A stretch of 15,768 nucleotides of DNA from Clostridia bacterium (lineage in GTDB: Bacteria > Bacillota > Clostridia > TANB77 > CAG-508): assembly GCA_022795675.1 (NCBI GenBank), contig JAAWHY010000020.1, positions 1 to 15,768 on the forward strand, read 5' to 3'. Each line of letters starts with the position of its first letter. The stretch's first letter is position 1. This document shows, piece after piece, positions 1-15,768 of this stretch. The translations under genes and the position numbers were made by a program. The notes below the pieces were generated by a model. That model made no database searches. It was not told the DNA's origin and saw only the letters and a list, made by a program, of their open reading frames with translations.

Positions 1-18
1 ATACATATTAATATGTAT
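1..18. repeat. Perfect 18-bp palindrome ATACATATTAATATGTAT at the window edge, followed by a T-run (TTTTTTTATTTTT). Possible weak terminator of an upstream plus-strand gene, or an operator.
   Basis: The 18-mer read directly is its own reverse complement. A T-tract follows at 23-37. Confidence 0.35.
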
Positions 19-69
19 ATGCTGTTTTTTTATTTTTAGAACTCTATTTTTTTGTTTTTGAAATTAACA

Positions 70-97
70 GAAGCACTCACCTAAGCAAGTGCTTCTC
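70..97. other. Stable hairpin of unknown function in a non-coding region: AGAAGCACT / AGTGCTTCT, 9-bp stem with a 10-nt loop.
   Basis: Inverted repeat read directly. Neither strand has a U-tract after it, so it is not a classical terminator. Confidence 0.3.
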
Positions 98-420
98 ATT
101 AACGTAAGTTTGACATATGTGCCCTTTCCTGTATTTCTTTTGACCTTATTTCTAAGGTGCGTAGCAGTACAAATCTCCACTTTAAATCCTATGTTCTTAT
201 TGTATCTTTATTATAACATTTTTATTCCTTTTTGTAAACACATTTATTCCTTTGCACACGGCAATTTCATCTATTATTACAAAATTATAACATTTAAATA
301 ACTAAATTTTATAGAGATATGGGATATCTATTTTTCGTAAAAAACCTTGTTACTTTGTATCATGTTTTTCAGCTCTGTCGCTTTTCCCGAAAAAATGGAA
401 AAGAGAACCGTCCCCATTTC

Positions 421-458
421 CACAAATAAAAAGAGGGGACCATATTGTTGGTACCCTC
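421..458 (-). terminator. Rho-independent terminator downstream of the flotillin gene.
   Basis: Minus-strand RNA reads GAGGGTACCAACAATATGGTCCCCTC followed by TTTTTATTTG. The stem is 10 bp with one mismatch. It lies about 75 nt after the floT stop. Confidence 0.55.
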
Positions 459-530
459 CAAAAAGAATGTAGTGGATTAGTAACTAACCTAAAAGTTTAT
501 GCTGTGGATTTTATTCAGTTTTGATTTTTC

Positions 531-2240: not shown

Positions 2241-2326
2241 AATAAAAAACTCCTTTTCTTTTTGATTTTAATCAATATTCTCCACTACATTATTCTTTTA
2301 TTGTACAACATAAACTCTATCTCTAT

Positions 2327-2355
2327 ATTATACCACACATCTATACTTATGTAAA
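2327..2355 (-). promoter_or_regulatory. Sigma-A-type promoter for floT (TTTACA-17 nt-TGGTATAAT, extended -10).
   Basis: The plus strand reads attata (2327-2332), then a 17-nt spacer, then tgtaaa (2350-2355). That is a consensus -10 with an upstream TG, and a 5/6 match at -35. It sits about 95 nt upstream of the floT ATG. Confidence 0.5.
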
Positions 2356-2499
2356 CATTTTTGACGATTAAATTAGGGGTGCTTCATCAAATATTGCAAT
2401 AGTCCTATAATTTTTGAGCTTGCAATCATTAACATTTATTGGAAATATCACAATTTTGTAACAAATAATGAAATGCCCCCTATCCTTTGCATTAATTTT

Positions 2500-3384
2500 C
2501 TAAAACTCCCAATTTGGAACATATTCTTCTTCATGTTCTCCTAATTCTTGAATATATCCATTTTCTAAGTCTAATTTATATAAATAATTTTCTATTTCTT
2601 TATATTCCTCTTTTGTTAATTTTCTGTTTAAGTCGCTTTGCATTGCATTATATGTTGGAAAGTATTGTGCCATTACACTTACATAGACTTTATTTCCTAA
2701 ATTAGTTTTTATCCACTTTAAGATTCTTTTTGAGTTTTCAATATGATTTGGAAGTACTAAATGTCTTATTATAACTCCCTTTTTTATGATTCCTTTTTCA
2801 TCTATATTTGGACTTCCAACTTGTTTATACATTTCTTTTATAGCTTTTGTAGATATATCAAAATAATTATTTACTTTTGAATATTTTTCCCCTAATTCAT
2901 TATAATAGTATTTTAAGTCTGGTAAGTAAACATCAATATAGCCTTCTAATATTTTTATGGTTTCTATGTTTTCATATCCATTTGAATTATATATTATTGG
3001 TATATTTAATCCATTTTCCTTTGCGATTTTTATTGCCTCTATTATTTGATAAGCATAGATTGTAGGTGATACTAGGTTTATATTATTTGCTCCCTTTTCT
3101 TGTTGTTTTATAAATATATCTGCTAATTCATCAATGCATATTTCTTTACCTCTTCCAGTTTGACTTATTTCATAATTTTGGCAAAATATACAATTTAAAT
3201 TACAGTTAGAAAAAAATACTGTTCCTGAGACTTTTTCTCCACTAATACATGGTTCTTCAAATTTATGTAATGAATATAATGCAATTTTGATTTTATCTGT
3301 TCCCTTACATCTCCCTAATTTTTCTTTTCTATTAATATTACATTTATGTGGGCATGTGTTACAATTTTCTAGTTCTTTTAACAT
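2500..3384 (-). CDS. Radical SAM protein, PflX-like (COG1313-type homolog of pyruvate formate-lyase activating enzymes), 294 aa.
   Basis: It carries a CNLNCIFC motif (CxxxCxxC, the radical-SAM [4Fe-4S] cluster) and an extra N-terminal CNTCPHKC cysteine cluster. Size and layout fit the PflA/PflX activase family. It starts at ATG 3382-3384. Confidence 0.8.
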   Translation of the reverse strand: MLKELENCNTCPHKCNINRKEKLGRCKGTDKIKIALYSLHKFEEPCISGEKVSGTVFFSNCNLNCIFCQNYEISQTGRGKEICIDELADIFIKQQEKGANNINLVSPTIYAYQIIEAIKIAKENGLNIPIIYNSNGYENIETIKILEGYIDVYLPDLKYYYNELGEKYSKVNNYFDISTKAIKEMYKQVGSPNIDEKGIIKKGVIIRHLVLPNHIENSKRILKWIKTNLGNKVYVSVMAQYFPTYNAMQSDLNRKLTKEEYKEIENYLYKLDLENGYIQELGEHEEEYVPNWEF

Positions 3385-3413
3385 TTTGATATATTGTCCC
3401 TTTCTTAATTTTT

Positions 3414-3441
3414 ATATGCAAAAGAGGCTCATGGGAGCCTC
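3414..3441 (-). terminator. Rho-independent terminator of the rpsF-ssb-rpsR operon.
   Basis: The minus-strand RNA reads GAGGCTC-CCAT-GAGCCTC (7-bp GC-rich stem) followed by TTTTGCATAT. It begins 13 nt after the rpsR stop. Confidence 0.6.
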
Positions 3442-3453
3442 CTTACTTATTTA

Positions 3454-3732
3454 TTAATTTTGTGAATAAGGTAATAATGCTATTTGTCTACATCTCTTTA
3501 CTGCTAATGTTATATCTCTTTGATGTTTTGCACAAGCACCTGTAGCTCTTCTTGGTAGTATTTTTCCTTTTTCATTTATGAATTTTTTTAATTGTTCTGG
3601 ATTTTTATAATCTAAAACTAAGTTCTTATCACTACAAAGTAAGCATACCTTTTTTCTCATTCTTTTGAATTTAGGATTAAAATCTTCATCATTATTGTTA
3701 TTATTTCTTCTATTATTTTTCTTGTCTGCCAT
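3454..3732 (-). CDS. rpsR: 30S ribosomal protein S18.
   Basis: The C-terminal signature [23 protein letters not shown] is classic S18. The size is 92 aa and the gene is last in the S6-SSB-S18 operon. Confidence 0.95.
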
Positions 3733-3755
3733 TCTTCTTTCCCCCTATCTAATTT

Positions 3756-4187
3756 TTAAAATGGTAAATCATCACTAGGTGTAACCTCAAAATCAGGATT
3801 TGGATTTGGGTTTGATGCAACATTTCCAAATGTATCTTCAAAGTTTGAAGAAGTTCCTTCTGAGTCTCTTTTTCCATCTGCAAAGTATGCTTCTTCTGCA
3901 ACAACTTCAGTAACATAGTGTTTTTGTCCTTGTTCATCATCCCATGTTCTTGTTTGTATTCTTCCTATGATACCTACTTGTTGACCTTTTTTGAAATATT
4001 TACTACAAAATTCTGCAAGTTTACTCCATACTACAATATTTATAAAATCTGCTTGTCTTTCTTCCCCTTGTCTTACAAATCTTCTATTTACTGCTAAGCT
4101 AAAGCTTGCTACCATAGTATTATTAGTTTGTGTATATCTAACCTCTGGGTCTCTTGTTAATCTTCCCATTAAAATTACTTTGTTCAT
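3756..4187 (-). CDS. ssb: Single-stranded DNA-binding protein.
   Basis: The N-terminus reads MNKVILMGRLTRDPEVRYT. There is an OB-fold core and an acidic C-terminal tail ending DDLPF. The gene sits between rpsF and rpsR. Confidence 0.95.
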   Translation of the reverse strand: MNKVILMGRLTRDPEVRYTQTNNTMVASFSLAVNRRFVRQGEERQADFINIVVWSKLAEFCSKYFKKGQQVGIIGRIQTRTWDDEQGQKHYVTEVVAEEAYFADGKRDSEGTSSNFEDTFGNVASNPNPNPDFEVTPSDDLPF

Positions 4188-4236
4188 ATCTAATTCCTTC
4201 TTTCTATCTCAGATTTTGGCTCCCTAGTTTTAACAA

Positions 4237-4521
4237 TTAATCTTCTACTCTTACAGTTATAAATTTTATAACTTCGTCTGTTATTCTGTAGTTTCTTTCT
4301 AGTTCTACTATTAGTTCTGGTTTTGCTTCAAAATTAAATACTACATAGTAACCTTCTGTGTTCTTTTTTACTTCATAGGCTAATTTTTTTCTTCCTACTT
4401 CTTGAACATTCTCAATTTTTCCATCACTATTAATCAAATCAGTAAATCTAGCTATAAGAGCTTTGATTCCTTCTTCTGTAACATCTTGACCAATAATGAC
4501 AACACTTTCGTATTTATTCAT
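4237..4521 (-). CDS. rpsF: 30S ribosomal protein S6. The true start is the internal ATG at 4519-4521, not the longer ORF in the track.
   Basis: MNKYESVVII... is the S6 N-terminus. AAAGGAGGTGG lies 9 nt upstream of this ATG. The track ORF extends upstream only through an alternative start codon. Confidence 0.9.
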   Translation of the reverse strand: MNKYESVVIIGQDVTEEGIKALIARFTDLINSDGKIENVQEVGRKKLAYEVKKNTEGYYVVFNFEAKPELIVELERNYRITDEVIKFITVRVED

Positions 4522-4607
4522 TATTTTCCACCTCCTTTTGGATATATATCCCGTAAACTTGTTACGAGAAAGGATGAAAAAAGTTATTTCTCTTTTCAAA
4601 CATGGTT

Positions 4608-4636
4608 ATTCTACCATATTTTACATGTTTTTTCAA
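4608..4636 (-). promoter_or_regulatory. Sigma-A promoter of the rpsF operon (TTGAAA-17 nt-TAGAAT), leaving a 5'UTR of about 86 nt.
   Basis: Plus-strand tttcaa lies at 4631-4636 and attcta at 4608-4613, with an exact 17-nt spacer. The leader contains the GGATATATATCC palindrome just before the RBS. Confidence 0.5.
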
Positions 4637-4684
4637 GTGGTTTTATAAAAAATTTTAACGTTCTGCAAATTATTACTCTCTGTA

Positions 4685-5260
4685 TTAATCACATAATTTT
4701 ATACCAGCTTGCTCCATTAGCTTAAATGCTATTTCATTATATTCATCTCTGTTATGTATAGGCGAATCATATGTTTCAACTGCATTTTTAGGTACCTTAA
4801 TCACTATATTTCTATCTTTTTGGTCAAAGTAATTCTGCAAAGGAATTGCTAAATTTATGATACATATATCTGTACAACATCCTATTATAATTACTTCTTG
4901 TAGATTAACCATTTTATCTATATCTTCTAAAAAATTAGGTGCATAAATTGTACTTGTAGAATTTTTATTATATACTAATGCTCCTGTTTCAAATTGTACT
5001 AATTCTTCTACTAATTCCGCTTCTTCTGTTCCTTCTACACAATGCACAGGGTACCTATTAAACTCTCTACAATTTTCTTTGTGAGTGTCTTTTATTATAG
5101 CTATTTCTCCATTTTCTTTTTCCTGCATTTCTGTCATTAATTTAATGTGTTCTGGAATTATATGTTTTATATATGTATCCGCCATAGCTCCTTTTTTTAC
5201 AAATCCATTTACCATATCAACATTAACTAATAACTCTCTTACTGTTTTTAAATCTTTCAT
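4685..5260 (-). CDS. Isochorismatase-family cysteine hydrolase, probably a nicotinamidase (PncA-like).
   Basis: The N-terminal VNVDMVNGF matches the D-box of the isochorismatase family. YPVHCVEGT matches the nicotinamidase WPxHCVxGT motif. The catalytic Cys sits in GCCTDICI. AAGGAG lies 7 nt upstream of the ATG. Confidence 0.75.
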   Translation of the reverse strand: MKDLKTVRELLVNVDMVNGFVKKGAMADTYIKHIIPEHIKLMTEMQEKENGEIAIIKDTHKENCREFNRYPVHCVEGTEEAELVEELVQFETGALVYNKNSTSTIYAPNFLEDIDKMVNLQEVIIIGCCTDICIINLAIPLQNYFDQKDRNIVIKVPKNAVETYDSPIHNRDEYNEIAFKLMEQAGIKLCD

Positions 5261-5278
5261 GATATTTCTCCTTTTATT

Positions 5279-6799
5279 TTACATTAATGGTGCACCTAAT
5301 TTTAATACTGCTTGAAATATGGATTTTATAAATCCTGGGTTACTTTCTTTTTCTGAAATTAAATGACTTTTTTCCATTGTATCTAAAGCATCTCTTTTTA
5401 TTTCTTCTATTACTTTTGATTCATAAATGTATATTCCACATTCAAAATGTAAATATAGACTTCTATAATCTAAATTAAGAGTTCCTACTGTGGCTATATT
5501 ATCATCACATACAAATACTTTTGAATGTAAGAATCCTGGTGTATATTCATATATCTTTACACCATCTTTTTTTAGCATTTTATAATATGAACGTGTTAAT
5601 GTGAATACAATCTTTTTATCTGGAATTCCTGGTGTTACAATTCTTACATCTACTCCCCTTTTACTTGCTAAGGTTATTGCAGATAACATTTCACTATCTA
5701 TAATAAGATATGGTGTAAATATATACACATATTTTTTTGCTTGATTTATTATGTTTAAATAAACATTTTCTCCAACAATTTCATCATCTAATGGATTTTC
5801 TCCATATGGTAGTATATATCCATCTGCTTTTACATCTTTTATTGTTGGTCTAAATTTCTCAAATGTGTCATCATCTTCTCTATATGCATTCCAAATTTTC
5901 AAGAACATAACTGTAAAGTTCCATGTTGCTTCGCCTTTTATCATTATTCCATTATCTTTCCAATGTCCATATTTTTCTTTTTTATTTATATATTCATCTG
6001 CAATATTAATTCCTCCACTAAATGAAACATTTCCATCTATTACCATTATTTTTCTATGATCCCTATTATTCATAATAACTGCAATTATTGGCTTTAATTT
6101 ATTAAATACAACACATTTAATTCCTTTAGATTCTAAAAATCTGTCATATTTATTGGGCAATGAACTTATACTTCCAACATCGTCATATATTACTCTAACA
6201 TCTACACCCTCTTTTACTTTTTGTTCTAGTATATCCAATATTCCTTGCCACATTTTTCCTTTCCCAATTATAAAATATTCTAAAAATATAAATTTTTTTG
6301 CTTTTTTTAGTTCCTCTATCATTACTGGATATACATCTTCTCCTAGAGGAAAATATTTTATTTCAGTATTATCATATATTGGATATCCTACATAATTTGA
6401 AATATATTGAACTTGCCCATATATCCCTAAATCCTTATTAGATATATTCTCCATTATTTTTGAATCTTGTACTAAATATTTCTTTGCTTTTTCTCTATTT
6501 CCATTTATCTTTTTTAACATTGGTGTAGAGTATAAATTTGCACCTACAAATACATACAATAATCCTCCAAAAAAAGGAACTAATATTATTAATATTATCC
6601 ATGGTAATTTATTATCTAGATGTCTTTCATTTTTTATTATTGTTAATGCTATTAATATACTTAAAATAGTTAATATTACATTTAAAGGTATATAACCTCT
6701 AAAATTTGCGACTATTAATAATAACCAAACTATTTGTACTACTATACATATTGCAATAATTCCTATTCTACTAAATATTAATTTTAATATGTTCCCCAT
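5279..6799 (-). CDS. cls: Cardiolipin synthase (phospholipase-D superfamily).
   Basis: There are two HKD motifs, HRKIMVIDGNVSFSGGINIADEY and HSKVFVCDDNIATVGTLNLDYRS, and two N-terminal TM helices. The start is 13 nt from the preceding stop, with AGAGG 8 nt upstream, so the genes are translationally coupled. Confidence 0.9.
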   Translation of the reverse strand: MGNILKLIFSRIGIIAICIVVQIVWLLLIVANFRGYIPLNVILTILSILIALTIIKNERHLDNKLPWIILIILVPFFGGLLYVFVGANLYSTPMLKKINGNREKAKKYLVQDSKIMENISNKDLGIYGQVQYISNYVGYPIYDNTEIKYFPLGEDVYPVMIEELKKAKKFIFLEYFIIGKGKMWQGILDILEQKVKEGVDVRVIYDDVGSISSLPNKYDRFLESKGIKCVVFNKLKPIIAVIMNNRDHRKIMVIDGNVSFSGGINIADEYINKKEKYGHWKDNGIMIKGEATWNFTVMFLKIWNAYREDDDTFEKFRPTIKDVKADGYILPYGENPLDDEIVGENVYLNIINQAKKYVYIFTPYLIIDSEMLSAITLASKRGVDVRIVTPGIPDKKIVFTLTRSYYKMLKKDGVKIYEYTPGFLHSKVFVCDDNIATVGTLNLDYRSLYLHFECGIYIYESKVIEEIKRDALDTMEKSHLISEKESNPGFIKSIFQAVLKLGAPLM

Positions 6800-6812
6800 T
6801 TTTACCTCTTTA

Positions 6813-8126
6813 TTATTCCTCTATTTCATCATTTTCTATTTGTTCAACCTTACATGCTTTTACTTTTGAAATATGCCTATCTTTTACATTTTCAATTTTG
6901 TATGCTACTTTTTCTGTTTCTATTACTACTCCTTTATCTTTCTCAGTTGGAATTCTTCCTAATTCTTCTACTAAATATCCTGAAAGTGTATCATAATCTC
7001 CTTCTTCAATATCTATTCCTAAAATATCTTCAACTTCATATATTGCTAATTTTCCATTTAGTACAAATGTATTTTCATCTATTTGGTCAATTAATTTCTC
7101 TACTTTGTCATATTCATCATAGATGTCTCCAACTATTTCTTCTAGTATATCTTCCATTGTGACAATTCCTGATGTTCCACCATATTCATCTATTACTATC
7201 GCGATTTGTTTTCTATTTTTTCTTAGTTCTTCAAATAATTCATTTACTGGTTTTGTTTCTGATACAAAAAATACTTCTTTCATTAGATTTTTTATTTTTG
7301 TATTTTTATTTTTTGTAGATAATAAAATATCTTTTATATATACTATTCCTTTTATTTTATCTATTTTTTCATCATATACTGGAACTCTACTATATCTTAA
7401 ATCTTCTGATAATTCTTCGATTACCTCTGAAATTGACATATTCATATCTAAAGCAAATATCTCTGTTCTAGGTATCATAATTTCTGATACAACTTTGTCG
7501 TTGAATTCAAATACATTGTTAAGCATATTTTTTTCTTCTTCATCTATTGTTCCTTTTTCTTTTCCAACATCTATCATCATTCTAATTTCTTCTTCTGTTA
7601 CAGTTTCTTCTTCACTTTCTGATACTCCAAATAATTTTGAGACTATATTTGTAGAAAGTGTTAAAAATTTAACAAATGGTGATGTTATTACAGATATTGT
7701 TTTTATGATTCCAATAGAAGCAAAAGCTATTTTTTCACTATTTTTCATTGCTAGTCTTTTTGGTACTAATTCCCCAAATATTAACGTGAAATATGATAAT
7801 ATAATTGTAATTACTATAATTGCGATATTATTCCATGCTGTTAAACTTATTGCTGGAATCCATCTATTTAATATTGGTGCTAATTCACTTGCAAAAGTTT
7901 CTGATGCAAAGGCACTTGATAAAAATCCCGCAAGTGTTATTCCTATTTGAATTGTTGCTAAGAACTTACTTGGGTTTACTAACATTTCCTTAATCTTTTT
8001 CGCTTTTTTATTTCCTTGTTTTGCTTGTAAATCTATTTTTGCATCATTTAATGAAATAAAAGCTATCTCTGCTGCTGCAAAAAAGGCATTTAATAATATT
8101 AAAATTATAATTACTAATATTTGCAT
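6813..8126 (-). CDS. Hemolysin-family / CNNM (DUF21)-CBS-CorC_HlyC transporter-associated protein. The start is revised to the ATG at 8124-8126.
   Basis: Multi-TM DUF21 N-terminus, then a tandem CBS region, then a CorC/HlyC C-terminal domain. AAAAGGAG lies 8 nt upstream of MQILV. The track's longer ORF adds 14 residues with no RBS. Confidence 0.85.
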   Translation of the reverse strand: MQILVIIILILLNAFFAAAEIAFISLNDAKIDLQAKQGNKKAKKIKEMLVNPSKFLATIQIGITLAGFLSSAFASETFASELAPILNRWIPAISLTAWNNIAIIVITIILSYFTLIFGELVPKRLAMKNSEKIAFASIGIIKTISVITSPFVKFLTLSTNIVSKLFGVSESEEETVTEEEIRMMIDVGKEKGTIDEEEKNMLNNVFEFNDKVVSEIMIPRTEIFALDMNMSISEVIEELSEDLRYSRVPVYDEKIDKIKGIVYIKDILLSTKNKNTKIKNLMKEVFFVSETKPVNELFEELRKNRKQIAIVIDEYGGTSGIVTMEDILEEIVGDIYDEYDKVEKLIDQIDENTFVLNGKLAIYEVEDILGIDIEEGDYDTLSGYLVEELGRIPTEKDKGVVIETEKVAYKIENVKDRHISKVKACKVEQIENDEIEE

Positions 8127-8284
8127 ATATATTCTCCTTTTTATTTTATATAATTTGTAGTTTACCACAATATATAAAATTTATCAATAATTTCTAATTT
8201 AATTTTATGATAAATTATTACCAATATCTCTAAGTAATTTTTATTTTTGTTTTTATGAACTTTGCTTTTAATACCCTACTATAT

Positions 8285-8323
8285 CTATATAAACAATTTA
8301 GAGCAGACTTATATTGTCTGCTC
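8285..8323 (-). terminator. Probable rho-independent terminator after zupT.
   Basis: The minus RNA reads GAGCAGAC-AATATAA-GTCTGCTC (8-bp stem) followed by TAAATTGTTTATATAG (moderately U-rich). It lies 9 nt after the zupT stop. Confidence 0.5.
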
Positions 8324-8331
8324 TATGAATT

Positions 8332-9093
8332 CTATCCTAACGCAATATCTAATATCATCATTACTGCAAAACCTATAGTTACACCTATTACACCTAGCAT
8401 AGATTTTTTTCCACTATGCATTTCTGGAATTAATTCCTCTACTACTACAAATATCATAGCACCTGCTGCAAAGGCTAATAAATACGGTAAAATTGGTACC
8501 ACTATATTTGTTAATAATACAGTTATAATAGCCGCAATTGGTTCAACTATACCTGACATTACACCATATAAAAATGATTTTCCTTTACTTATTCCTTTCA
8601 TCTTTAAAGGCATTGAAATTATTGCACCTTCTGGAATATTTTGAATTGCTATCCCTATAGCTAGAACAACTGCTTCTAGAAAACTTATTCCTGCATTTCC
8701 TGCTAAAAATCCTGCAAAACATACACCTACTGCCATTCCTTCTGGAATGTTATGTAGTGTAACTGAAAATAATAACATGTTTAATTTTTTACCATTTGGT
8801 TTATTTTCAAACCTTTCAGCCATTTTATTTATGAAAAGTAAAAATATAACTCCTAATAATAATCCAACTGTTGCTGGTATCCAAGATATTACTCCTTGAT
8901 TTTCAGCCATTTCTACAGCTGGAAGTATAAGCGACCATACACTTGCTGCAATCATAACTCCTGAAGCAAAACCTATAATTATCTTTTGAAAATTTTCACT
9001 CATGTTTTTTTTCATGAAAAATACAAAACTACTTCCAAAACTTGTTCCAATAAATGGAACTAAGATTCCTCCAATACTATATAATATATTCAA
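8332..9093 (-). CDS. zupT: ZIP-family zinc/metal transporter (ZupT-like).
   Basis: Eight predicted TM helices with duplicated HNIPEG and QNIPEG motifs. It uses a TTG start, with AGGAGG 9 nt upstream. Confidence 0.85.
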   Translation of the reverse strand: MNILYSIGGILVPFIGTSFGSSFVFFMKKNMSENFQKIIIGFASGVMIAASVWSLILPAVEMAENQGVISWIPATVGLLLGVIFLLFINKMAERFENKPNGKKLNMLLFSVTLHNIPEGMAVGVCFAGFLAGNAGISFLEAVVLAIGIAIQNIPEGAIISMPLKMKGISKGKSFLYGVMSGIVEPIAAIITVLLTNIVVPILPYLLAFAAGAMIFVVVEELIPEMHSGKKSMLGVIGVTIGFAVMMILDIALG

Positions 9094-9188
9094 TGTTTTT
9101 GTCCTCCTATATTATATAATATTCTATTTTTGTTATTATGTTAATTTAGTTTTTTTAATAATTTAAAAATTTTTCATAACCATTGACA

Positions 9189-9425
9189 CTAAGTATCATA
9201 TTTATACTCCTTCTCTTCCATAAAATTATAAATTTCACTTAAATATTTTTTTGTTATCATTGCTAGCTTGGCTGGCGGATTTTTTGAGCCTTGATATATT
9301 AACTTTTTTGTGTAACAGTTTTCTGTTGTCTTAAATACTAGATACCTATTTTCAAGATATGTGAAATATACCTGATATCCTTTGTCTAATATCTCTTCAA
9401 ATTCATCAAATGTATTGTCTTGCAT
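9189..9425 (-). CDS. Small hypothetical protein (78 aa), translationally coupled to ligA.
   Basis: Its ATG lies 11 nt after the ligA stop, and AAGGAG overlaps the ligA stop codon. I recognise no motif. Confidence 0.5.
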   Translation of the reverse strand: MQDNTFDEFEEILDKGYQVYFTYLENRYLVFKTTENCYTKKLIYQGSKNPPAKLAMITKKYLSEIYNFMEEKEYKYDT

Positions 9426-9435
9426 TTTTTTCTCC

Positions 9436-11430
9436 TTATTTTATCATATCTTCAAATTCTTGTTCTGATATTACTATTATTCCCAAATTTTCTGCTTTTG
9501 TGAGTTTTGAGCCAGCCTCTTCGCCTGCTAGTACATAACTTGTCTTTTTTGATACAGAACTTGAGGTTTTGCCTCCAAATTTTTCTATTATTTCACTTGC
9601 TTCATCTCTTGTGTATTTTTCTAGCGTTCCTGTTAGTACAAAGGTTTTTCCGGCAAATCTATCATCTCGTAATTCTACATCTTCATGACTTTCCATGTTT
9701 ACACCTGCATTTTTTAGTTTTTCTATTAAGTCTATTGTTTGTTCTTGGTGAAAAAATTCATATATGCTTTTTGCTGATATTCCCCCTATTGTATCTATTA
9801 AGTTTAGACTTTCTATACTTGCATTCATTACACCTTCTATATTTCCATATCTTCTTGCAACAATTTTTGCTGCTTTATTTCCAATATGTCTTATTCCTAA
9901 TGCACATATTAGCCTTTCTAAATCATTGTTTTTGCTCTCATTAATAGCATCTATTAAGTTCTGCGCAAATTTGTCTCCACTCTTTTTTAATGAAGCTATT
10001 TCTTCTTTTTTTAGATAGTATATGTCTGCAATATTACTTAGATATCCTCTTTCTATAAGTTGCTCTATTACAGATATTCCTAGTCCTTCTATGTCCATTC
10101 CTGATTTAGAGGCAAAATGGACTAAATTTTGTAAATTTCTTGCACTACATTCTATTCCTATACAATACCACGCTGCTTCTCCTTCTTCTCTTACAACTGC
10201 TCCTCCACATACTGGACATACTTTTGGCATTTCAAATTCTATTTCTTTTCCATTTCTTTTTTGTTTTAAAACATCTACTACTTCTGGTATTACATCTCCT
10301 GCCTTTTGAATTACTACATGGTCTCCTATCTTTATTCCTTTTTCTTTTATAAAGTCTTCATTGTGTAATGTTGTTTTAGATATTGTTGACCCTGCAAGTT
10401 CTACTGGTTCTAATATTGCAACTGGAGTAATTGCTCCTGTTCTACCTACTTGACATTGTATTTCTTTTAGTATAGTTTCTTTTTTCTCTGGTGGATATTT
10501 ATATGCGATCGCCCAACGTGGTACTTTAAATGTTGTTCCAAGCTTTTCTCTATAATCCAAATTATCAACTTTGATGGCTGCTCCATCTGTTCCAAATGTT
10601 AGACTTTCTCTTCTTTTTCCTATGTCTTCTACCGCTTCTATTGCTTCTTCAATTCCATGACATAGTTTTTTTTCTGGATTTACATTGAATCCTAATTTTT
10701 CTAAGTATTTTAATTGTTCATAGTGTGAATTAAATTTATTTCCTGTTAATCTTTGAATATTAAATATATAGATATCTAATGGTCTTTTTTCTGTCATTTT
10801 ACTGTCTAATTGTCTTAATGAACCTGCTGCTGCATTTCTTGCATTTGCAAAGGTTTTCTCTCCTAAAATTTCTTGTTCTTCATTCATTTTTTCAAAGTCT
10901 TTTTTAGATATAAAAATTTCTCCGCGAACTATTAGATTAACAGGTTCCTTTAATTTTTTAGGTACATTTTTTATTGTTCTTATATTTTCTGTAACATCTT
11001 CTCCTTCTGTACCATTTCCTCTAGTTGCTCCTGTTACATATTCTCCTTTTACATATTCTATTGCTGAAGATAAACCATCTATTTTGGCTTCTACAGTATA
11101 ATCTATTTCTTCTATTCCTAACTGTTTTTTTACTCTTTCATCAAAACTCCTAAGTTCTTCTATGGAAAATACATCTTGTAGACTTTGAAGTGGTATTTCA
11201 TGCTCTATTTTATTAAAGCCTTCTTTTACAGTTCCACCAACTTTTTGAGTTAATGAATCTTTATCTATGAATTCTGGAAATTTTGCTTCTAAATTTCTAA
11301 GATCTACCATTAGCATATCATACTCTAAGTCACTTATTTCTGGTGCATCATCATCATAATATTTTTTTGCATAATATGAGGTTTTTTCTCTTAACTCTTT
11401 TATTCTCTTTTCTGCTTCTTCTTTATCCAT
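9436..11430 (-). CDS. ligA: NAD+-dependent DNA ligase.
   Basis: KxDG adenylation motif (KIDGLS), a four-Cys zinc finger (CPVCGG...CIGIEC), HhH region and C-terminal BRCT. The size is 664 aa. Confidence 0.95.
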   Translation of the reverse strand: MDKEEAEKRIKELREKTSYYAKKYYDDDAPEISDLEYDMLMVDLRNLEAKFPEFIDKDSLTQKVGGTVKEGFNKIEHEIPLQSLQDVFSIEELRSFDERVKKQLGIEEIDYTVEAKIDGLSSAIEYVKGEYVTGATRGNGTEGEDVTENIRTIKNVPKKLKEPVNLIVRGEIFISKKDFEKMNEEQEILGEKTFANARNAAAGSLRQLDSKMTEKRPLDIYIFNIQRLTGNKFNSHYEQLKYLEKLGFNVNPEKKLCHGIEEAIEAVEDIGKRRESLTFGTDGAAIKVDNLDYREKLGTTFKVPRWAIAYKYPPEKKETILKEIQCQVGRTGAITPVAILEPVELAGSTISKTTLHNEDFIKEKGIKIGDHVVIQKAGDVIPEVVDVLKQKRNGKEIEFEMPKVCPVCGGAVVREEGEAAWYCIGIECSARNLQNLVHFASKSGMDIEGLGISVIEQLIERGYLSNIADIYYLKKEEIASLKKSGDKFAQNLIDAINESKNNDLERLICALGIRHIGNKAAKIVARRYGNIEGVMNASIESLNLIDTIGGISAKSIYEFFHQEQTIDLIEKLKNAGVNMESHEDVELRDDRFAGKTFVLTGTLEKYTRDEASEIIEKFGGKTSSSVSKKTSYVLAGEEAGSKLTKAENLGIIVISEQEFEDMIK

Positions 11431-11486
11431 TATAATTATCTTTCCTTTCTTGCATGAAATAGGGTGGAAAAGAATTTTTCACACTT

Positions 11487-12134
11487 CTAGTCTTTTAATA
11501 AATCTTTTCCGCCTCTTAAGTAATCCCATCCCGAAAAAATTGTTGCTATTACACATATTACTAAAAGCGATGTTGATAAAATGTTAATTCCAAATTGCAT
11601 ATTATTCATGTATATACTTGCACTGTTTTCCATCATTGCTTGTGTATTTGAAACTCTAAAAATAAATTGTCCAAAGCTAAATTTATCAGCAAAACAACAA
11701 ATTACTGCAAGCATTTGTGTTACTGTTTTTATTTTCCCCCAAATTGATGCTGGTATTACTTTTCCGCCTTTCTCTACTGCAATTAATCTATACCCTGATA
11801 CCATAAATTCTCTTATTAATATTATTATAGGTATCCATGCTGGAATTCTTGAATATTCTACTAAAATAACTAGTGCTGCTATTACTAGAATTTTATCTGC
11901 TATTGGGTCTAAAAATTTCCCAAAAGTTGTAACTTGATTCCATTTTCTTGCAAGTGTTCCATCTAATTTATCTGTAAGTGCTGCTATTATAAAAATTATA
12001 TTCATTATCCAAAATGAAGTAGTTATTCCTAAAAATTCCCCTGGTATTCCAACTATACTATCAATTATTGGAATAATCATCATTATTATAACCAAAATCA
12101 TTCTAAAAATCGTAAGTTTATTAGGTAAATTCAT
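11487..12134 (-). CDS. pgsA: CDP-diacylglycerol--glycerol-3-phosphate 3-phosphatidyltransferase.
   Basis: CDP-alcohol phosphotransferase motif DKLDGTLARKWNQVTTFGKFLDPIADK. The N-terminus MNLPNKLTIFR matches the PgsA type. Multi-TM. Confidence 0.9.
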   Translation of the reverse strand: MNLPNKLTIFRMILVIIMMIIPIIDSIVGIPGEFLGITTSFWIMNIIFIIAALTDKLDGTLARKWNQVTTFGKFLDPIADKILVIAALVILVEYSRIPAWIPIIILIREFMVSGYRLIAVEKGGKVIPASIWGKIKTVTQMLAVICCFADKFSFGQFIFRVSNTQAMMENSASIYMNNMQFGINILSTSLLVICVIATIFSGWDYLRGGKDLLKD

Positions 12135-12237
12135 TATTACTCACATTCCTTTCTAAGTACAAACTTTCTTCCTCATTGTTCTCTTATTATATTAGAAAAA
12201 ATTAAAAAAATAAATAGTTTTACTAAATTTTTATAAT

Positions 12238-12266
12238 TTGCAATTTTATGTAAAATCATTTATAAT
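12238..12266 (+). promoter_or_regulatory. Sigma-A promoter (TTGCAA-17 nt-TATAAT) for the plus-strand membrane-protein gene.
   Basis: ttgcaa at 12238-12243, a 17-nt spacer, and tataat at 12261-12266. GGAGGAGG follows at 12284-12291. Confidence 0.5.
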
Positions 12267-12299
12267 ATTACATATAAAAATTTGGAGGAGGAAGCAGTA

Positions 12300-13025
12300 A
12301 TGCAAACAGAATTTAGAATTCTACATTCTCGGGTTATAGAAAATGGAATCATGTTTTATTCTAACTCTAATGAAGATTATGCTGCTATATCTACTATTGA
12401 TAAAAATGGTAATATAAAAGCAGAATGGACTTCAGTACAGAAATACAGAAAGGAGCATAAAAAAGAACAAATAATAGTAGACTTTAAAAATTTTTTACTT
12501 TTTTTACCACTTATTATATTTTTAGTAATTCCTTTTGTTATATTACTTTTTAGTGGAGCTTTTACAAGTAGATATGCTATTAAAAATCTTTTACAGTTCG
12601 CTTTAATTTGTAATTTAGTTATTATTTTAACAGTTCTATTATATAGACCCAAAAACATGTTAAAACTTAAAGCAGCTTCTGATATGCTCGTTAATGCATA
12701 TCGAGAACTTAGAAGTCCACCATCTCTTGAAGAACTTTCTACATATTCTTACTTGGATAATTTTAGTGGTAGTAATTCACTAATGCTAACAGCTATTATT
12801 GATATATTACTTCTTTTTTGTACTTGCATTAACAATCCATTTATTGCAATTATAGTATCTTTAATTGTAGTAGTGCTTATTAAACCAAAGCTTGAAATAT
12901 TATCTTATACTTACGGTTTTCTTAATTTTTCTCAGGCATTTTCTAAAACATCACCAACAGATACAGAATTAATGGTTGCAATTTCAGCACTGGAAGTTTG
13001 GATTAAAAACGAAGGATATAAATAA
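12300..13025 (+). CDS. Hypothetical membrane protein (241 aa from the ATG at 12300). It has a soluble N-terminal domain of about 65 aa followed by two pairs of TM helices.
   Basis: The track ORF starts at TTG 12282, which overlaps the SD GGAGGAGG, so ATG 12300 is the likely start. It is the only plus-strand gene in the window and is divergent from pgsA. I recognise no motif. Confidence 0.55.
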   Translation: MQTEFRILHSRVIENGIMFYSNSNEDYAAISTIDKNGNIKAEWTSVQKYRKEHKKEQIIVDFKNFLLFLPLIIFLVIPFVILLFSGAFTSRYAIKNLLQFALICNLVIILTVLLYRPKNMLKLKAASDMLVNAYRELRSPPSLEELSTYSYLDNFSGSNSLMLTAIIDILLLFCTCINNPFIAIIVSLIVVVLIKPKLEILSYTYGFLNFSQAFSKTSPTDTELMVAISALEVWIKNEGYK

Positions 13026-13090
13026 GACTAAATATAGTTTTTTAGTATTCTTCAATTAGCTTTTTCCGTGAGTTTTTATTTAAAACTCTT

Positions 13091-13130
13091 CCCCCAGTAA
13101 TTGTAAAATTACTGGGGAATTTCTTATATA
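13091..13130 (+). terminator. Rho-independent terminator of the membrane-protein gene. Possibly bidirectional, since the thrS transcript also reaches it.
   Basis: CCCCAGTAATT-GTAA-AATTACTGGGG (11-bp stem) followed by AATTTCTTATATA. The minus-strand reading is followed by GAGTTTTAAATAAAAAC. Confidence 0.55.
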
Positions 13131-13133
13131 CTT

Positions 13134-13156
13134 GGGGCAGACACAAGGCCTGCCCC
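13134..13156. repeat. G+C-rich hairpin element GGGGCAGAC-ACAAG-GCCTGCCCC. It shares the minus-strand GTAGGGGCA 5' motif with the thrS-flanking elements.
   Basis: 9-bp stem with one G.U pair, read directly. It ends in ..GCCCCTAC, as do elements A and B. Confidence 0.4.
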
Positions 13157-13205
13157 TACAAATTAACAATTTCATTATTAAATGATACAGAAAATATTTA
13201 AACAT

Positions 13206-13257
13206 AGGGCACAGTGGTGTCACGAGTTTTGGGTATTCCCGCAAATGGTGCCCCTAC
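13206..13257. repeat. Copy A of a G+C-rich structured repeat element (AGGGCACAGTGGTGTCAC-8 nt-GGTATTCCCGCAAATGGTGCCCCTAC), immediately 3' of the thrS stop.
   Basis: Near-identical arms recur at 15065-15155. On the minus strand, 5' GGGGCAC can pair with 3' GTGCCC. The element ends 4 nt before the thrS stop codon at 13262-13264. Confidence 0.6.
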
Positions 13258-13261
13258 GGTT

Positions 13262-15034
13262 TTATTTTCCTAATTTGTTTGCTTCTTCTTTTATTTTTGA
13301 AAGGAATTCTTGTTTATCCATTGCTCCAATGTCTCCTTCTGCTCTTGAACGAACTCCTACTGTTCCTGTTTCTTGTTCTTTTTTACCTATTACTAACATA
13401 TATGGTACTTTTTCTAATTGTGCTTTTCTTATCTTGTACCCTATCTTTTCGTTGGAATCATCTAATTCAACTCTTATACTTTCTAATTTTAATTCTTCTA
13501 CCAAGTTTTCTGCATATTCTTTGTTATCATCTGATATTGGTAATACTTTTACTTGTACTGGTGATAACCATACTGGAAGTGCTCCTTTTGTTTCTTCTAT
13601 TAAGAAGGACATAAATCTATCTAATGTTCCAAGTATCGCTCTATGAATTACTACTGGTCTATGCTCTTTTCCATCTTCTCCTATATATTCTAGTTCAAAT
13701 TTTTGTGGTAATAAGAAATCTAATTGACAGGTTGAAACAGTTACATCATGTCCCAATGCTGTTTTTATTTGAACATCTAGTTTTGGTCCATAGAATGCTG
13801 CTTCTCCTTTTGCTTCATAGAATTCAACTCCTAGTTCTTCTAAAATTTCCCTTAGCTGGCTTTCTGCATTGTCCCACATTTCGTCATCATCATAGTATTT
13901 TACTTTGTCTTCTTTATCTCTTAGAGAAAGTCTAAATGAATAGTCTTTAAATCCAAAGTCTTCATATACAGATAAAATTAATTCTACAACCTTTCTAAAT
14001 TCTTCTTTAATTTGGTCTGGTTTTACAAAAAGGTGTGCATCGTTTTGACACATTTCACGTACCCTTTCTAGTCCACAAACTGAGCCACTTGCTTCATATC
14101 TAAAGTCATGTGCAAGTTCTCCTATTCTTATTGGTAATTCTCTATATGAATGCATTTTATTTTTATATACTAACATGTGATGAGGGCAATTCATTGGTCT
14201 CAAAACTAATTGCTCGTTTTCCATTTGCATTATTGGGAACATATCATCTTTATAATGTGCCCAGTGCCCACTTGTTTCATATAATTTTACATTTGCAAGT
14301 GATGGAGTATATACATGTTTATATCCTAAAGCTATTTCTTTGTCTTGAATATATCTTTCTAATATTCTTCTTATTGTGGCACCATTTGGTAAATACATTG
14401 GAAGTCCAGAACCTACTAATTCATGTGTCATGAAAAGTTCTAATTCTTTTCCTATTTTTCTATGGTCTCTTTGTTTTGCTTCTTCTAGTTTTGCTAAGTA
14501 TTCATCTAGTTCAGATTGTTTTGGGAAAGAAATGCCATAAATTCTTTTTAGCATTTTATTATGCTCATCCCCTCTCCAATATGCTCCTGATGTAGATAAT
14601 AATTTTATACATCTAACACATCCTGTTGATGGTAAATGTGGCCCTCTACATAAATCTATAAATTCTCCTTGTTTATAGAAAGATATTGTTTCTCCCTCTG
14701 GTAATTCTTTTATTAATTCTACTTTATAGTCTTGTTTTTGTTCTTCCATTAGTTTTATTGCTTCTTCCCTTGGAAGTTCAAATCTTTCAATAACTAGATT
14801 TTCTTTTTCGATTTTCTTCATTTCTTCTTCTATTTTTATTAGGTCTTCTTCTGAAAATGATTGTTCAAGGTCAAAGTCATAATAAAATCCATTTTCTATT
14901 GATGGTCCAATTGCCATTTTTGCTTCTGGAAATAATCTTTTTACTGCTTGTGCCATAATGTGTGATGTTGTATGCCAATATACACTTTCTTCTACTTCTC
15001 TTGTTTTTCCACCTTCTAATTTAATTTTAAACAT
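13262..15034 (-). CDS. thrS: Threonyl-tRNA synthetase (590 aa from the ATG at 15032-15034), with a truncated N-terminal TGS domain.
   Basis: HxxxH editing-domain start (HTTSHIMAQAVKRL), the class-II motif HRKIGKELELF, and a C-terminal anticodon-binding domain. AGGAGG lies 8 nt upstream of MFKIKLEGG. The track ORF is extended through non-coding repeat DNA by an alternative start. Confidence 0.9.
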   Translation of the reverse strand: MFKIKLEGGKTREVEESVYWHTTSHIMAQAVKRLFPEAKMAIGPSIENGFYYDFDLEQSFSEEDLIKIEEEMKKIEKENLVIERFELPREEAIKLMEEQKQDYKVELIKELPEGETISFYKQGEFIDLCRGPHLPSTGCVRCIKLLSTSGAYWRGDEHNKMLKRIYGISFPKQSELDEYLAKLEEAKQRDHRKIGKELELFMTHELVGSGLPMYLPNGATIRRILERYIQDKEIALGYKHVYTPSLANVKLYETSGHWAHYKDDMFPIMQMENEQLVLRPMNCPHHMLVYKNKMHSYRELPIRIGELAHDFRYEASGSVCGLERVREMCQNDAHLFVKPDQIKEEFRKVVELILSVYEDFGFKDYSFRLSLRDKEDKVKYYDDDEMWDNAESQLREILEELGVEFYEAKGEAAFYGPKLDVQIKTALGHDVTVSTCQLDFLLPQKFELEYIGEDGKEHRPVVIHRAILGTLDRFMSFLIEETKGALPVWLSPVQVKVLPISDDNKEYAENLVEELKLESIRVELDDSNEKIGYKIRKAQLEKVPYMLVIGKKEQETGTVGVRSRAEGDIGAMDKQEFLSKIKEEANKLGK

Positions 15035-15064
15035 ATGATTTTTCCTCCTTTTTGAATATGACAA

Positions 15065-15155
15065 AGGGCACAGTGGTGTCACAGTTCTCTTCGAGCCCAG
15101 ATAAATTTGGCAATGCCAAATTTATCGTAGGTATTCCCACAAACGGTGCCCCTAC
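15065..15155. repeat. Copy B of the G+C-rich repeat element, located in the thrS 5'UTR between the T-box terminator and the RBS. It carries a 47-nt internal insert.
   Basis: The arms AGGGCACAGTGGTGTCAC and GGTATTCCCACAAACGGTGCCCCTAC match copy A with two substitutions. Confidence 0.6.
15100..15126. repeat. Perfect 27-bp palindrome GATAAATTTGGCAATGCCAAATTTATC inside element B. It is an operator-like dyad as DNA, or a 13-bp hairpin as RNA.
   Basis: Read directly. The 13-nt arms are exact reverse complements around a single central A. Confidence 0.7.
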
Positions 15156-15161
15156 ATATAT

Positions 15162-15400
15162 AATAAACAAAAAATCCCTATGGGATTTTTTGTATCCCAT
15201 AGGGGTATATTTTCATATACGGTTCCACCCTAAGATTTCACTTCATTTTAGATTTTAACGCTAATCCTAAACGCTAGCATTTCTGCTAGAAACTCCGAGG
15301 TAGTTTTTCAAATATGTTTACTAAAATTAGCTTTCAGCCACGACTAATTATCTCTACTAGCAACCTTTATTTTACTTCCGTCCTCTTCACAGTTTACTTA
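15162..15400 (-). promoter_or_regulatory. T-box riboswitch leader of thrS, with a threonine ACU specifier.
   Basis: On the minus strand, the Stem I base GAGG...ACU-A-CCUC gives the specifier. A CTAGCA-GAAA-TGCTAG hairpin follows. The T-box sequence AAATCTTAGGGTGGAACCG is the reverse complement of 15220-15237. The terminator is CCCTATGGGAT-ACAAAAA-ATCCCATAGGG followed by ATTTTTTGTTTATT (15162-15204). The TSS is assumed to lie about 7 nt past the -10 element. Confidence 0.8.
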
Positions 15401-15410
15401 AATTAATATA

Positions 15411-15439
15411 ATTATATTATTTTCTATACAGCTTGTCAA
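15411..15439 (-). promoter_or_regulatory. Consensus sigma-A promoter of the thrS leader (TTGACA-17 nt-TATAAT).
   Basis: Plus-strand tgtcaa at 15434-15439 and attata at 15411-15416, with an exact 17-nt spacer. Confidence 0.6.
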
Positions 15440-15477
15440 GGGAAAAATATGTATATTTTGTAACTATTCATTTAAAC

Positions 15478-15501
15478 GGACGCCCAAAGGAAAGGGCGTC
15501 C
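15478..15501 (-). terminator. G+C-rich hairpin GGACGCCC-AAAGGAAA-GGGCGTCC. It is the probable terminator of the partial gene entering from the right edge and lies just upstream of the thrS promoter.
   Basis: 8-bp perfect stem. The minus-strand reading is followed by GTTTAAATG, a weak U-tract. On the minus strand it is preceded by GTAGGG, like the other G+C elements. Confidence 0.4.
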
Positions 15502-15544
15502 CTACAATGTATATTTATATATAATCATCCATACAATATAGATT

Positions 15545-15768
15545 TTATATCATTGGAAAATTTGGTCCTCCTGGGAAATTTGGTCCAGGTCTCATTGGTG
15601 GCCTTCCTGGTCTTCTTCTTAATAATTCTTTTATTATTAAAATTCTTATTAAATCTCTTAATAGGAAATTGTTTTGTCTTGGTTCCTCCACAATCTCCGA
15701 CTGGATGCTTCCGTCTTTGTTCACGGTAATAAATGTGCCGGTGTCTTCTTCTTTCTCATTTCCACAGG
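15545..15768 (-). CDS. Partial 3' end of an unidentified ORF that starts beyond the window. The C-terminus is Pro/Gly-rich (..RRRPGRPPMRPGPNFPGGPNFPMI*).
   Basis: The frame is open from the window edge to a TAA at 15545-15547 (74 codons) and a hairpin terminator follows. It is not in the supplied track, which appears to list only ORFs that begin at a start codon. Codon usage is mixed and the identity is unknown. Confidence 0.3.
   Translation of the reverse strand, partial: CGNEKEEDTGTFITVNKDGSIQSEIVEEPRQNNFLLRDLIRILIIKELLRRRPGRPPMRPGPNFPGGPNFPMI

Follow-up and report, generated by a model that had tools for sequence, protein, structure and literature searches.

The threonyl-tRNA synthetase (ThrRS) gene thrS on contig JAAWHY010000020.1 of a Clostridia bacterium (positions 1 to 15,768; this whole stretch is referred to here as the window) is bracketed by two copies of a short G+C-rich repeat, termed here copy A and copy B. 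We conclude, at a probability of roughly 85%, that each repeat represents a repetitive extragenic palindrome (REP) tagged with the tetranucleotide GTAG, which is dispersed, associated with a REP-associated tyrosine transposase (RAYT) and recently arrived, and that neither is a signal specific to thrS. The element is dispersed at dozens of unrelated sites, a RAYT gene lies between inverted copies of it, and the copies at thrS are recent and polymorphic between strains.

A dispersed repeat with recent copies at thrS

A sequence-only reading of the window had reported near-identical arms in the same orientation on either side of thrS, which is encoded on the minus strand, and the arms were found where it had placed them, with AGGGCACAGTGGTGTCAC (+ strand) at 13206-13223 and 15065-15082 and GGTATTCCCRCAAAYGGTGCCCCTAC (+ strand) at 13232-13257 and 15130-15155, separated by cores of 8 nt and 47 nt. 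It had likewise located one copy by the stop codon and the other in the 5′ untranslated region (5′UTR); copy A starts 4 nt past the stop codon, and copy B does lie in the 5′UTR, between the terminator and the Shine-Dalgarno sequence (SD). On the thrS strand the element reads GTAGGGGCACCGTTTGNGGGAATACC-[8 nt]-GTGACACCACTGTGCCC; its 17-nt arm is identical in copies A and B and its 26-nt arm differs at two positions, and the arm patterns did not occur in 200 dinucleotide-preserving shuffles with up to 3 mismatches allowed. That reading had overlooked two simple relatives, GTAGGG + GC-hairpin elements of other families, which are also on the thrS strand (Table 1). The motif GTAGGGRC is present four times in the window against 0.17 expected, the four REPs sharing one orientation and all lying within 2.4 kb around thrS, with none in the remaining 13 kb. 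Rfam searches, both at gathering thresholds and in a permissive E-value mode, returned no match on the elements, only the T-box of thrS and chance matches, and a tRNA/tmRNA scan returned nothing, the element having no resemblance to tRNA-Thr.

An exact scan with the 17-nt 3′ arm, using one genome per species, gave 74 loci (comparison loci that were retrieved are labelled L001 etc.). Forty-seven of these, with 49 exact 17-nt matches, are in 11 metagenome-assembled genomes (MAGs) of uncultured Clostridia/Eubacteriales with a GC content of 26-34%, and nearly every 17-mer at these low-GC loci has the 5′ arm in front of it; the remaining 27 are in unrelated, mostly high-GC genomes and show no other part of the element. 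CATKWX01 contains at least 23 exact-arm copies and CAPZDM01 at least 13, these copy numbers being lower bounds since fragmented MAGs under-assemble repeats, and a profile search added further diverged copies. Among 51 copies three size classes could be distinguished: 43 short (51 nt), six long (90 nt, with an insert as in copy B) and two longer (125 nt). The long form as in copy B was also seen in L038, L041 and L062, and upstream of the RAYT gene in L082, whilst a bare form in L041, GTAGGGGCACCACTGTGCCC, equals the thrS-type unit minus its 31-nt interior. Thirty-nine of the 51 copies are intergenic, 27 of them between co-directional genes and in sense orientation; many are situated 1-35 nt past a stop codon, and about 43 of 49 copies have GTAG on the sense strand of the gene upstream. 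A T precedes GTAG in 42 of 48 copies, and the same loci contain 87 other GTAGGG + GC-hairpin repeats belonging to several families. Of the several explanations offered by the sequence-only reading, the one borne out is a family of REP type with a chance cluster at thrS, the core being present at dozens of unrelated and mostly intergenic sites.

For the genome of the window itself the evidence of multiple copies is indirect, consisting of its four GTAG elements and of assembly breaks in copy A. Three independent Logan assemblies with an identical ThrRS end 48 nt into copy A (L001 4328-4375, L002 4029-4076 and L003 3401-3448), as expected if the repeat is multi-copy in that genome. No target-site duplication of fixed length was detected, flanking direct repeats having a mean of 2.4 nt compared with 2.1 nt in shuffles. 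A scan of viral contigs gave no match and so no sign of carriage by phage, a scan of metagenomes with the element's conserved middle part gave three matches only, too few for an analysis of end variation, and a literature search for the literal element sequence retrieved unrelated primer matches only.

Two observations on individual copies may be recorded here. At loci of CATKWX01 such as L012, L013, L036, L039, L040 and L072, many copies are preceded by an AT-rich GAATGAATAGTGAATAATGAATAGTGAA... and by a palindrome, CAAAATTTGC..GCAAATTTTGAT, and are followed by other GTAG hairpins, forming mosaics that resemble bacterial interspersed mosaic elements (BIMEs) and in which every REP is in one orientation. 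In L037 (7621-7671; 51 nt, 17 codons) and L038 (1084-1173; 90 nt, 30 codons) the element is inserted in frame (...NPDD-VGAPFGGIPETRDTTVP-V...) in very large RCC1-repeat-like open reading frames (ORFs), 51 and 90 both being multiples of 3.

The thrS loci of relatives were graded by ThrRS identity and their flanks compared. With a ThrRS identity of 100%, the window, L001 and L003 have copy B at the 5′UTR site and copy A at the 3′ site, whilst L002, also at 100%, has a simple GTAG hairpin (GTAGGGGCGCCCTTTGGGCGTCC) at the former and copy A at the latter. At 98% (L092-95) the 5′UTR site is occupied by a different composite GTAG element and the 3′ site by copy A with 2 of 51 nt changed, and the simple REP downstream of copy A is kept; at 95% (L096-98) the two sites hold, respectively, a degenerate simple GTAG-like element and a different simple GTAG-like hairpin. 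Neither site has an element at 91% (L099) and 90% (L100/101), where the SD follows the terminator almost directly and the next gene is close to thrS, nor at 80% (L102/103), where the 5′UTR has a longer spacer without a GTAG element. Copy B is thus absent from L002 despite an identical ThrRS, and copy A is absent at identities of 95% and below, so that the copies are not conserved at the thrS flanks of sister strains and species; together with the dispersal, this is the outcome by which the sequence-only reading itself would have recognised a generic REP. Being strain-polymorphic, copies A and B are dispensable for thrS; each came recently and on its own into a neighbourhood prone to REPs.

A RAYT gene bounded by inverted copies

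At four independent loci, L065, L082-85, L086 and L087/88, a gene of 144-169 aa lies between two copies of the element, one some 15 nt upstream of the ATG and the other, inverted, immediately past the stop codon, the inverted repeats being 42-71 nt long and 87-95% complementary. The upstream copy in L082 is the same long form as copy B of the window, and in L078-81 the upstream copy alone is present. A first screen of 318 ORFs with an IS200 sequence had yielded one marginal match (L065, E = 0.004), which served as a lead only. The L065 ORF (244-675, minus strand) encodes 144 aa from its ATG and matches Pfam Y1_Tnp (PF01797) with 23.6 bits (cut-off 23) and NCBIfam NF047646, 'REP-associated tyrosine transposase', with 67.2 bits (E = 1.3e-18), as against 20 bits for IS200; its sole PDB match is 4ER8, the E. 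coli TnpA-REP (E = 4e-8). In an alignment that includes E. coli TnpA-REP, no variation is seen in the motifs WQ..YEHxIRN and YIxxNP (the latter with the catalytic Tyr and, four residues on, an Asn); of the 8 aligned proteins 7 retain the HUH histidines, one homologue being the exception. Judged by these matches and motifs, the 144-aa gene belongs to the RAYT clade of Y1 HUH enzymes. Several of its 1028 homologues are named RayT by JGI; contexts were retrieved for four close homologues out of the 1028, and three of the four show the two-copy layout (L065 being additional to these). A RAYT gene between two inverted REPs is the defining layout of a 'REPtron' (PMC2817692, PMC8266576), and a GTAG head followed by a GC stem is the definition of the GTAG-REP superfamily (PMC3733652). 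The contigs carrying the RAYT gene and those carrying the 98% thrS loci share metagenome samples, e.g. ERZ14651011.

At L078-L085 the RAYT gene is near a gene of the phage-integrase family, and at L078-81 it overlaps a second Y1_Tnp gene (246 aa) on the opposite strand, the downstream REP having been lost; this layout may be that of a REPtron in decay or after rearrangement, or may belong to an integrative element. In L087/L088 (1124-1633, P0010) the RAYT start given in the database is inside the upstream REP, and the resulting spurious N-terminus, MGIPVRHDTTVP..., is translated repeat.

By analogy with the biochemistry of TnpA-REP from E. coli and other bacteria and of IS200/IS605 enzymes (PMC3479197, PMC8266576, PMC6006769), the RAYT would recognise folded single-stranded DNA (ssDNA), probably the lagging-strand template, by its GTAG head and hairpin foot, and would cut and join the folded GTAG strand such that copies spread. 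The hypervariable 8-nt centre tolerates nested inserts, giving rise to the 90-nt and 125-nt forms and to REP-in-REP composites. Between 48 and 49 of the 51 copies are on the G-rich strand, and REPs in convergent or divergent gaps are on the strand of the majority of genes in 10 of 10 cases, an orientation bias that use of the lagging-strand template would produce. In these genomes 90% of genes are co-oriented, local GC skew tracks gene orientation and one REP alone lies between two minority-strand genes; an attempt to part replication-strand bias from transcription bias by GC skew found the two inseparable with genes 90% co-oriented.

Structure of the element and its setting at thrS

The element begins with GTAG, which is unpaired, and is closed by a GC stem of 6 bp (GGGCAC/GTGCCC) round a 35-nt interior that is conserved but largely non-palindromic. 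Variation is high at position 17 and in the 8-nt centre and slight in both arms, and GTAG is retained in 51 of 52 distinct 51-nt copies, the other having GTAA. The sequence-only reading had proposed that the ends of the element close into a stem. The stem itself stands, GGGCAC/GTGCCC being predicted on both strands, but the short copy overall folds no better than shuffles (z = -1.27), whether folded as RNA or as DNA, and the z of -4.05 for the long copy comes largely from the AT-rich 12-bp hairpin inside its 47-nt insert, a hairpin like the AT-rich palindromes adjoining REPs in related MAGs. Across the aligned copies 99% of cells in the closing stem (5-10 with 46-51) are paired, and nine of nine one-sided changes lead to G.T/G.U wobbles on the GTAG strand with no A.C mismatch. 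A check for covarying stems, which the same reading had called for, found no compensatory double change in the closing stem. In the centre, positions 27-29 can form a 3-bp hairpin with 33-35, which is paired in 74% of cases with 13 double changes, and its observed score was reached in none of 500 shuffles; this signal is weak and confounded by ancestry, and may reflect two subfamilies rather than selection. An alternative register, position 17 with 28, is 63% paired. Both simple elements of the window show the GC palindrome of 20-40 bp after the tag that is typical of REPs, whilst the thrS-type unit has its 6-bp stem round a 35-nt interior. The stems of simple REPs contain 14 G.T compared with 5 A.C mismatches, which is suggestive, but many of the G.T pairs are inherited within families, and this count was not used as strong evidence.

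All nested material sits in the variable centre of the thrS-type unit, which suggests that the centre is an exposed, unconstrained loop of the substrate. A whole simple REP, GTAGGGAACGACGCCCTCGTCGTTCC, is inside the centre in L056 (323-252), L064 (1206-1135) and L057 (~1033), and in the 125-nt forms (L051 7655-7779 and L060 1147-1271) a second AT-rich palindrome is inside the hairpin of the long form; these composites recur at different loci and therefore propagate as units. A further idea, that the centre copies or complements its flanks (as a captured target or a guide), found no support: the substrings shared between centre and flanks were no longer than in shuffled pairings.

An ordinary T-box leader is the actual cis-regulator of thrS (ATG at 15034, stop codon 13262-13264), and the repeats are not part of it. 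The leader scored below the Rfam gathering score of 93 and was recovered by the permissive E-value mode, so that default Rfam annotation misses the thrS T-box in this lineage. Copy B was tested as a possible part of the T-box; the T-box match is complete at 15399-15198, and copy B is outside the model, 3′ of the terminator and 5′ of the SD (15048-15044). Both repeats would belong to the full-length thrS mRNA, in which they appear from the strain comparison to be passengers. In the predicted fold of the 5′UTR with copy B the SD of thrS stays unpaired, and copy B would, according to this model, add stable structure to the 5′UTR. A terminator scan flagged the T-box terminator and a site at 13092-13117, and flagged neither repeat as an intrinsic terminator; the bases 3′ of the 51-nt element are mildly T-rich with no consistent T-run. 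In E. coli, REPs near stop codons protect 3′ ends or attenuate translation, and effects of REPs placed close to stop codons, such as stalling there, are reported for that species by Liang, Rudd and Deutscher (2015). Any effect of the copy A hairpin, 4 nt past the stop codon, is a side-effect and not a conserved control of thrS.

Table 1. Features of the thrS region of the window (all on the minus strand), with positions in the 15,768-nt window.
Feature	Position	Strand	Description
Simple GTAG-REP	13134..13159	-	GTAGGGGCAGGCCTTGTGTCTGCCCC; 47 nt downstream of copy A, same orientation; fold -18.1 kcal/mol, z = -3.4
Copy A, short compound GTAG-REP, 51 nt	13207..13257	-	GTAGGGGCACCATTTGCGGGAATACC-CAAAACTC-GTGACACCACTGTGCCC; 4 nt past the thrS stop codon
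thrS coding sequence	13262..15034	-	590 aa + stop; Pfam tRNA_SAD, tRNA-synt_2b, HGTP_anticodon
Copy B, long form, 90 nt	15066..15155	-	5′ arm 15155-15130, insert 15129-15083 (47 nt), 3′ arm 15082-15066
AT-rich 12-bp hairpin in the centre of copy B	15100..15126	-	GATAAATTTGGC-ATT-GCCAAATTTATC
T-box terminator hairpin and T-run	15168..15204	-	Hairpin 15204-15176; terminator scan; ends 12 nt before copy B
T-box leader of thrS	15198..15399	-	RF00230, 78.9 bits, E = 9.5e-17, model positions 1-219 (full length)
Sigma-70-type promoter of the thrS leader	15411..15439	-	Consensus TTGACA-17-TATAAT, 12/12 matches
Simple GTAG-REP	15478..15505	-	GTAGGGACGCCCTTTCCTTTGGGCGTCC; between the preceding gene and the thrS promoter; z = -4.4

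Elsewhere in the window, a 247-aa ORF without a Pfam match (12282-13025, +) is situated between thrS and a pgsA-like gene. It was found only in the clade with a ThrRS identity of at least 98%, whilst in the 95% and 91% relatives a CDP-alcohol phosphatidyltransferase gene comes directly after thrS; the interval of this insertion also holds copy A and a simple REP. A gene for a 569-aa SPFH/Band-7 protein (531-2240, -) has a GC content of 43-50%, compared with 20-35% for the rest of the contig, and contains 33-nt tandem repeats at 903-1067; it may owe this to a repetitive Ala/Glu/Lys-rich tail or be foreign DNA.

Alternative explanations and known systems

Several points weigh against a RAYT-associated GTAG-REP as the identity of the two repeats. 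The element is not a classical 20-40-bp palindrome, being closed by 6 bp round an interior that is not self-complementary, and nearly all copies are in one orientation, unlike the BIMEs of E. coli and the REPINs of Pseudomonas, a bias that would also fit selection at the RNA level. The NF047646 score of 67 bits is below the equivalog cut-off of 80 and the Pfam cut-off is barely passed; the RAYT gene comes from related MAGs and metagenome contigs, with the genome of the window represented by the 15.8-kb contig alone, and it is by analogy that we infer mobilisation of the 51-nt family by the RAYT. Compared with its sister strains, moreover, copy B has the appearance of a replacement rather than a clean insertion.

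In a tentative alternative, to which we give well under even odds and which is compatible with a REP/RAYT origin, the element would owe its retention chiefly to a role as an RNA module, transcribed in sense at mRNA ends or starts and stabilising the 3′ end or the 5′UTR or attenuating translation next to stop codons, with spread by the transposase being secondary. Besides the predominance of copies in sense to the upstream gene and the many just past stop codons, 76 of 81 REPs between co-oriented genes follow the direction of those genes, and Di Nocera et al. (2013; PMC3733652) argue for such an RNA-level role of GTAG REPs as a whole; yet orientation is confounded with replication direction where 90% of genes are co-oriented, and most copies are without a U-tract. 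One-sided changes in the closing stem are all G.U-compatible, but G.T pairs are tolerated in ssDNA hairpins too, the stem has no compensatory change and the fold of the short form is not better than that of shuffles. Likewise, the near invariance of the arms across species, whilst the centre drifts, and the double changes in the mini-hairpin of the centre would suit an RNA module, but the covariation in the centre may equal two subfamilies, some copies are in frame inside ORFs, and those at thrS are strain-polymorphic and hence dispensable. The invariant arms, the hypervariable and insert-accepting centre and the almost exclusive sense orientation also underlie a further proposal that we consider rather unlikely, in which the 51-nt unit is a structured RNA/ssDNA module selected site by site and a new functional class of REP in Firmicutes. 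Such a module could be an mRNA-end element with a stability-tuning centre, or a docking platform with arms read by the RAYT or by a host factor, in which case the centre could be a dedicated landing pad for further REPs.

That the two copies bracket a single essential gene in the same orientation, and would both be in its full-length mRNA, had suggested cis-acting RNA signals specific to thrS, either ThrRS operators or RNase processing sites in the UTRs, and the E. coli ThrRS does bind its own leader. We now find this hardly credible: the same element adjoins about 50 unrelated genes, copy B is missing next to an identical ThrRS and copy A at 95% identity or less, relatives closer to the ancestral state are empty at both sites, a complete T-box is already present and the element is unlike tRNA-Thr, such that the ThrRS-binding and RNase-processing readings are refuted by the comparative data. 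A conventional MITE (miniature inverted-repeat transposable element) of a DDE-type insertion sequence is very unlikely. The element is short, non-coding and multi-copy with complementary ends, as a MITE would be, but its terminal complement is 6-7 bp only, it has no consistent direct repeat (2.4 nt compared with 2.1 nt in shuffles), its GTAG head is typical of REPs and the one gene found between inverted copies encodes a Y1 HUH RAYT. The label 'MITE' used in the sequence-only reading is therefore imprecise, there being no target-site duplication, a terminal complement of 6 bp and an associated enzyme that is a RAYT and not a DDE transposase. The closeness of the two copies, and nothing else, speaks for chance similarity or for a scar left near thrS by local recombination or duplication; with no matches in shuffles and identical arms at unrelated loci in many genomes, this explanation has next to no probability, and the recombination scars that had been suggested are unsupported.

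Taking the repeats as GTAG-REPs removes a tempting novel regulatory RNA of thrS, leaving the gene under an ordinary T-box with repeat passengers in its UTRs, and documents a clear REPtron (a RAYT gene with cognate GTAG REPs) in an uncultured low-GC lineage of Clostridia, descriptions of REP/RAYT systems having so far come almost entirely from Proteobacteria. The conserved interior, the nested centre, the in-frame copies and the unidirectionality of the family could inform RAYT substrate recognition and REP diversification. Such repeats also break MAG assemblies, and automated scans can mistake them for riboswitch-like leaders.

Amongst known systems, the REP/BIME elements of E. coli and their TnpA-REP (RayT/YafM; PDB 4ER8) have in common with the Clostridia family a GTAG tag at the 5′ end with a GC-rich stem next to it, a high copy number at mostly extragenic sites that are usually downstream of genes, a transposase-like gene between two inverted REPs, and the HUH, WQ..(Y/W)EHxIRN and YIxxNP catalytic Tyr motifs of the enzyme (PMC2817692, PMC3479197, PMC8266576). 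They differ in that the Clostridia RAYT is about 28% identical to the E. coli enzyme and is without its C-terminal tail, and in that the family described here, from an uncultured low-GC Clostridia host, is built of compound 51-nt units whose interior is conserved without being palindromic and whose centre is hypervariable; in E. coli BIMEs the REPs alternate (PMC2817692), whereas here they are single and nearly all in one orientation. The nested elements in the centre and the in-frame copies of 51 and 90 nt are further departures from classical REPs. With the 24 families of the GTAG superfamily surveyed by Di Nocera et al. (2013; PMC3733652) the element shares the GTAG terminus, stems in the range of 6-13 bp, G.T pairs in stems, intragenic copies and sites between unidirectional or convergent ORFs, and GTAG-3, -14 and -15 have large complex loops, as here. 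The head-to-tail arrangement in a single orientation that is rare in that survey is here the rule, and the word Firmicutes is absent from its text. The REPINs of Pseudomonas fluorescens and their Group 2/3 RAYTs (PMC5581495) are likewise RAYT-associated short repeats that behave as within-genome populations, but REPINs are inverted REP doublets forming one long hairpin and the units described here are singlets; in Clostridia, Bertels et al. (PMC5581495) report only Group 1 RAYTs, with low-copy 16-mers.

IS200/IS605 elements and their palindrome-associated derivatives have a strong strand bias, as expected from use of the lagging-strand template (PMC6006769). Shared with them are a strand bias, the Y1 HUH family, the lack of a target duplication and, by analogy, what would be recognition of a folded single strand, but IS200/IS605 have distinct left and right ends, compared with one type of GTAG hairpin at both ends here, and the protein described here fits the RAYT model far better than the IS200 model (67 vs 20 bits). 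Rickettsia palindromic elements are, like the copies in L037 and L038, short in-frame repeats in coding genes. They are longer, lack a GTAG tag and are not known to have a RAYT partner. Set against all of these, the 51-nt system behaves like a GTAG-REP/RAYT system and agrees with one in its GTAG tag, its many dispersed copies, its RAYT-clade gene and the inverted copies around that gene.

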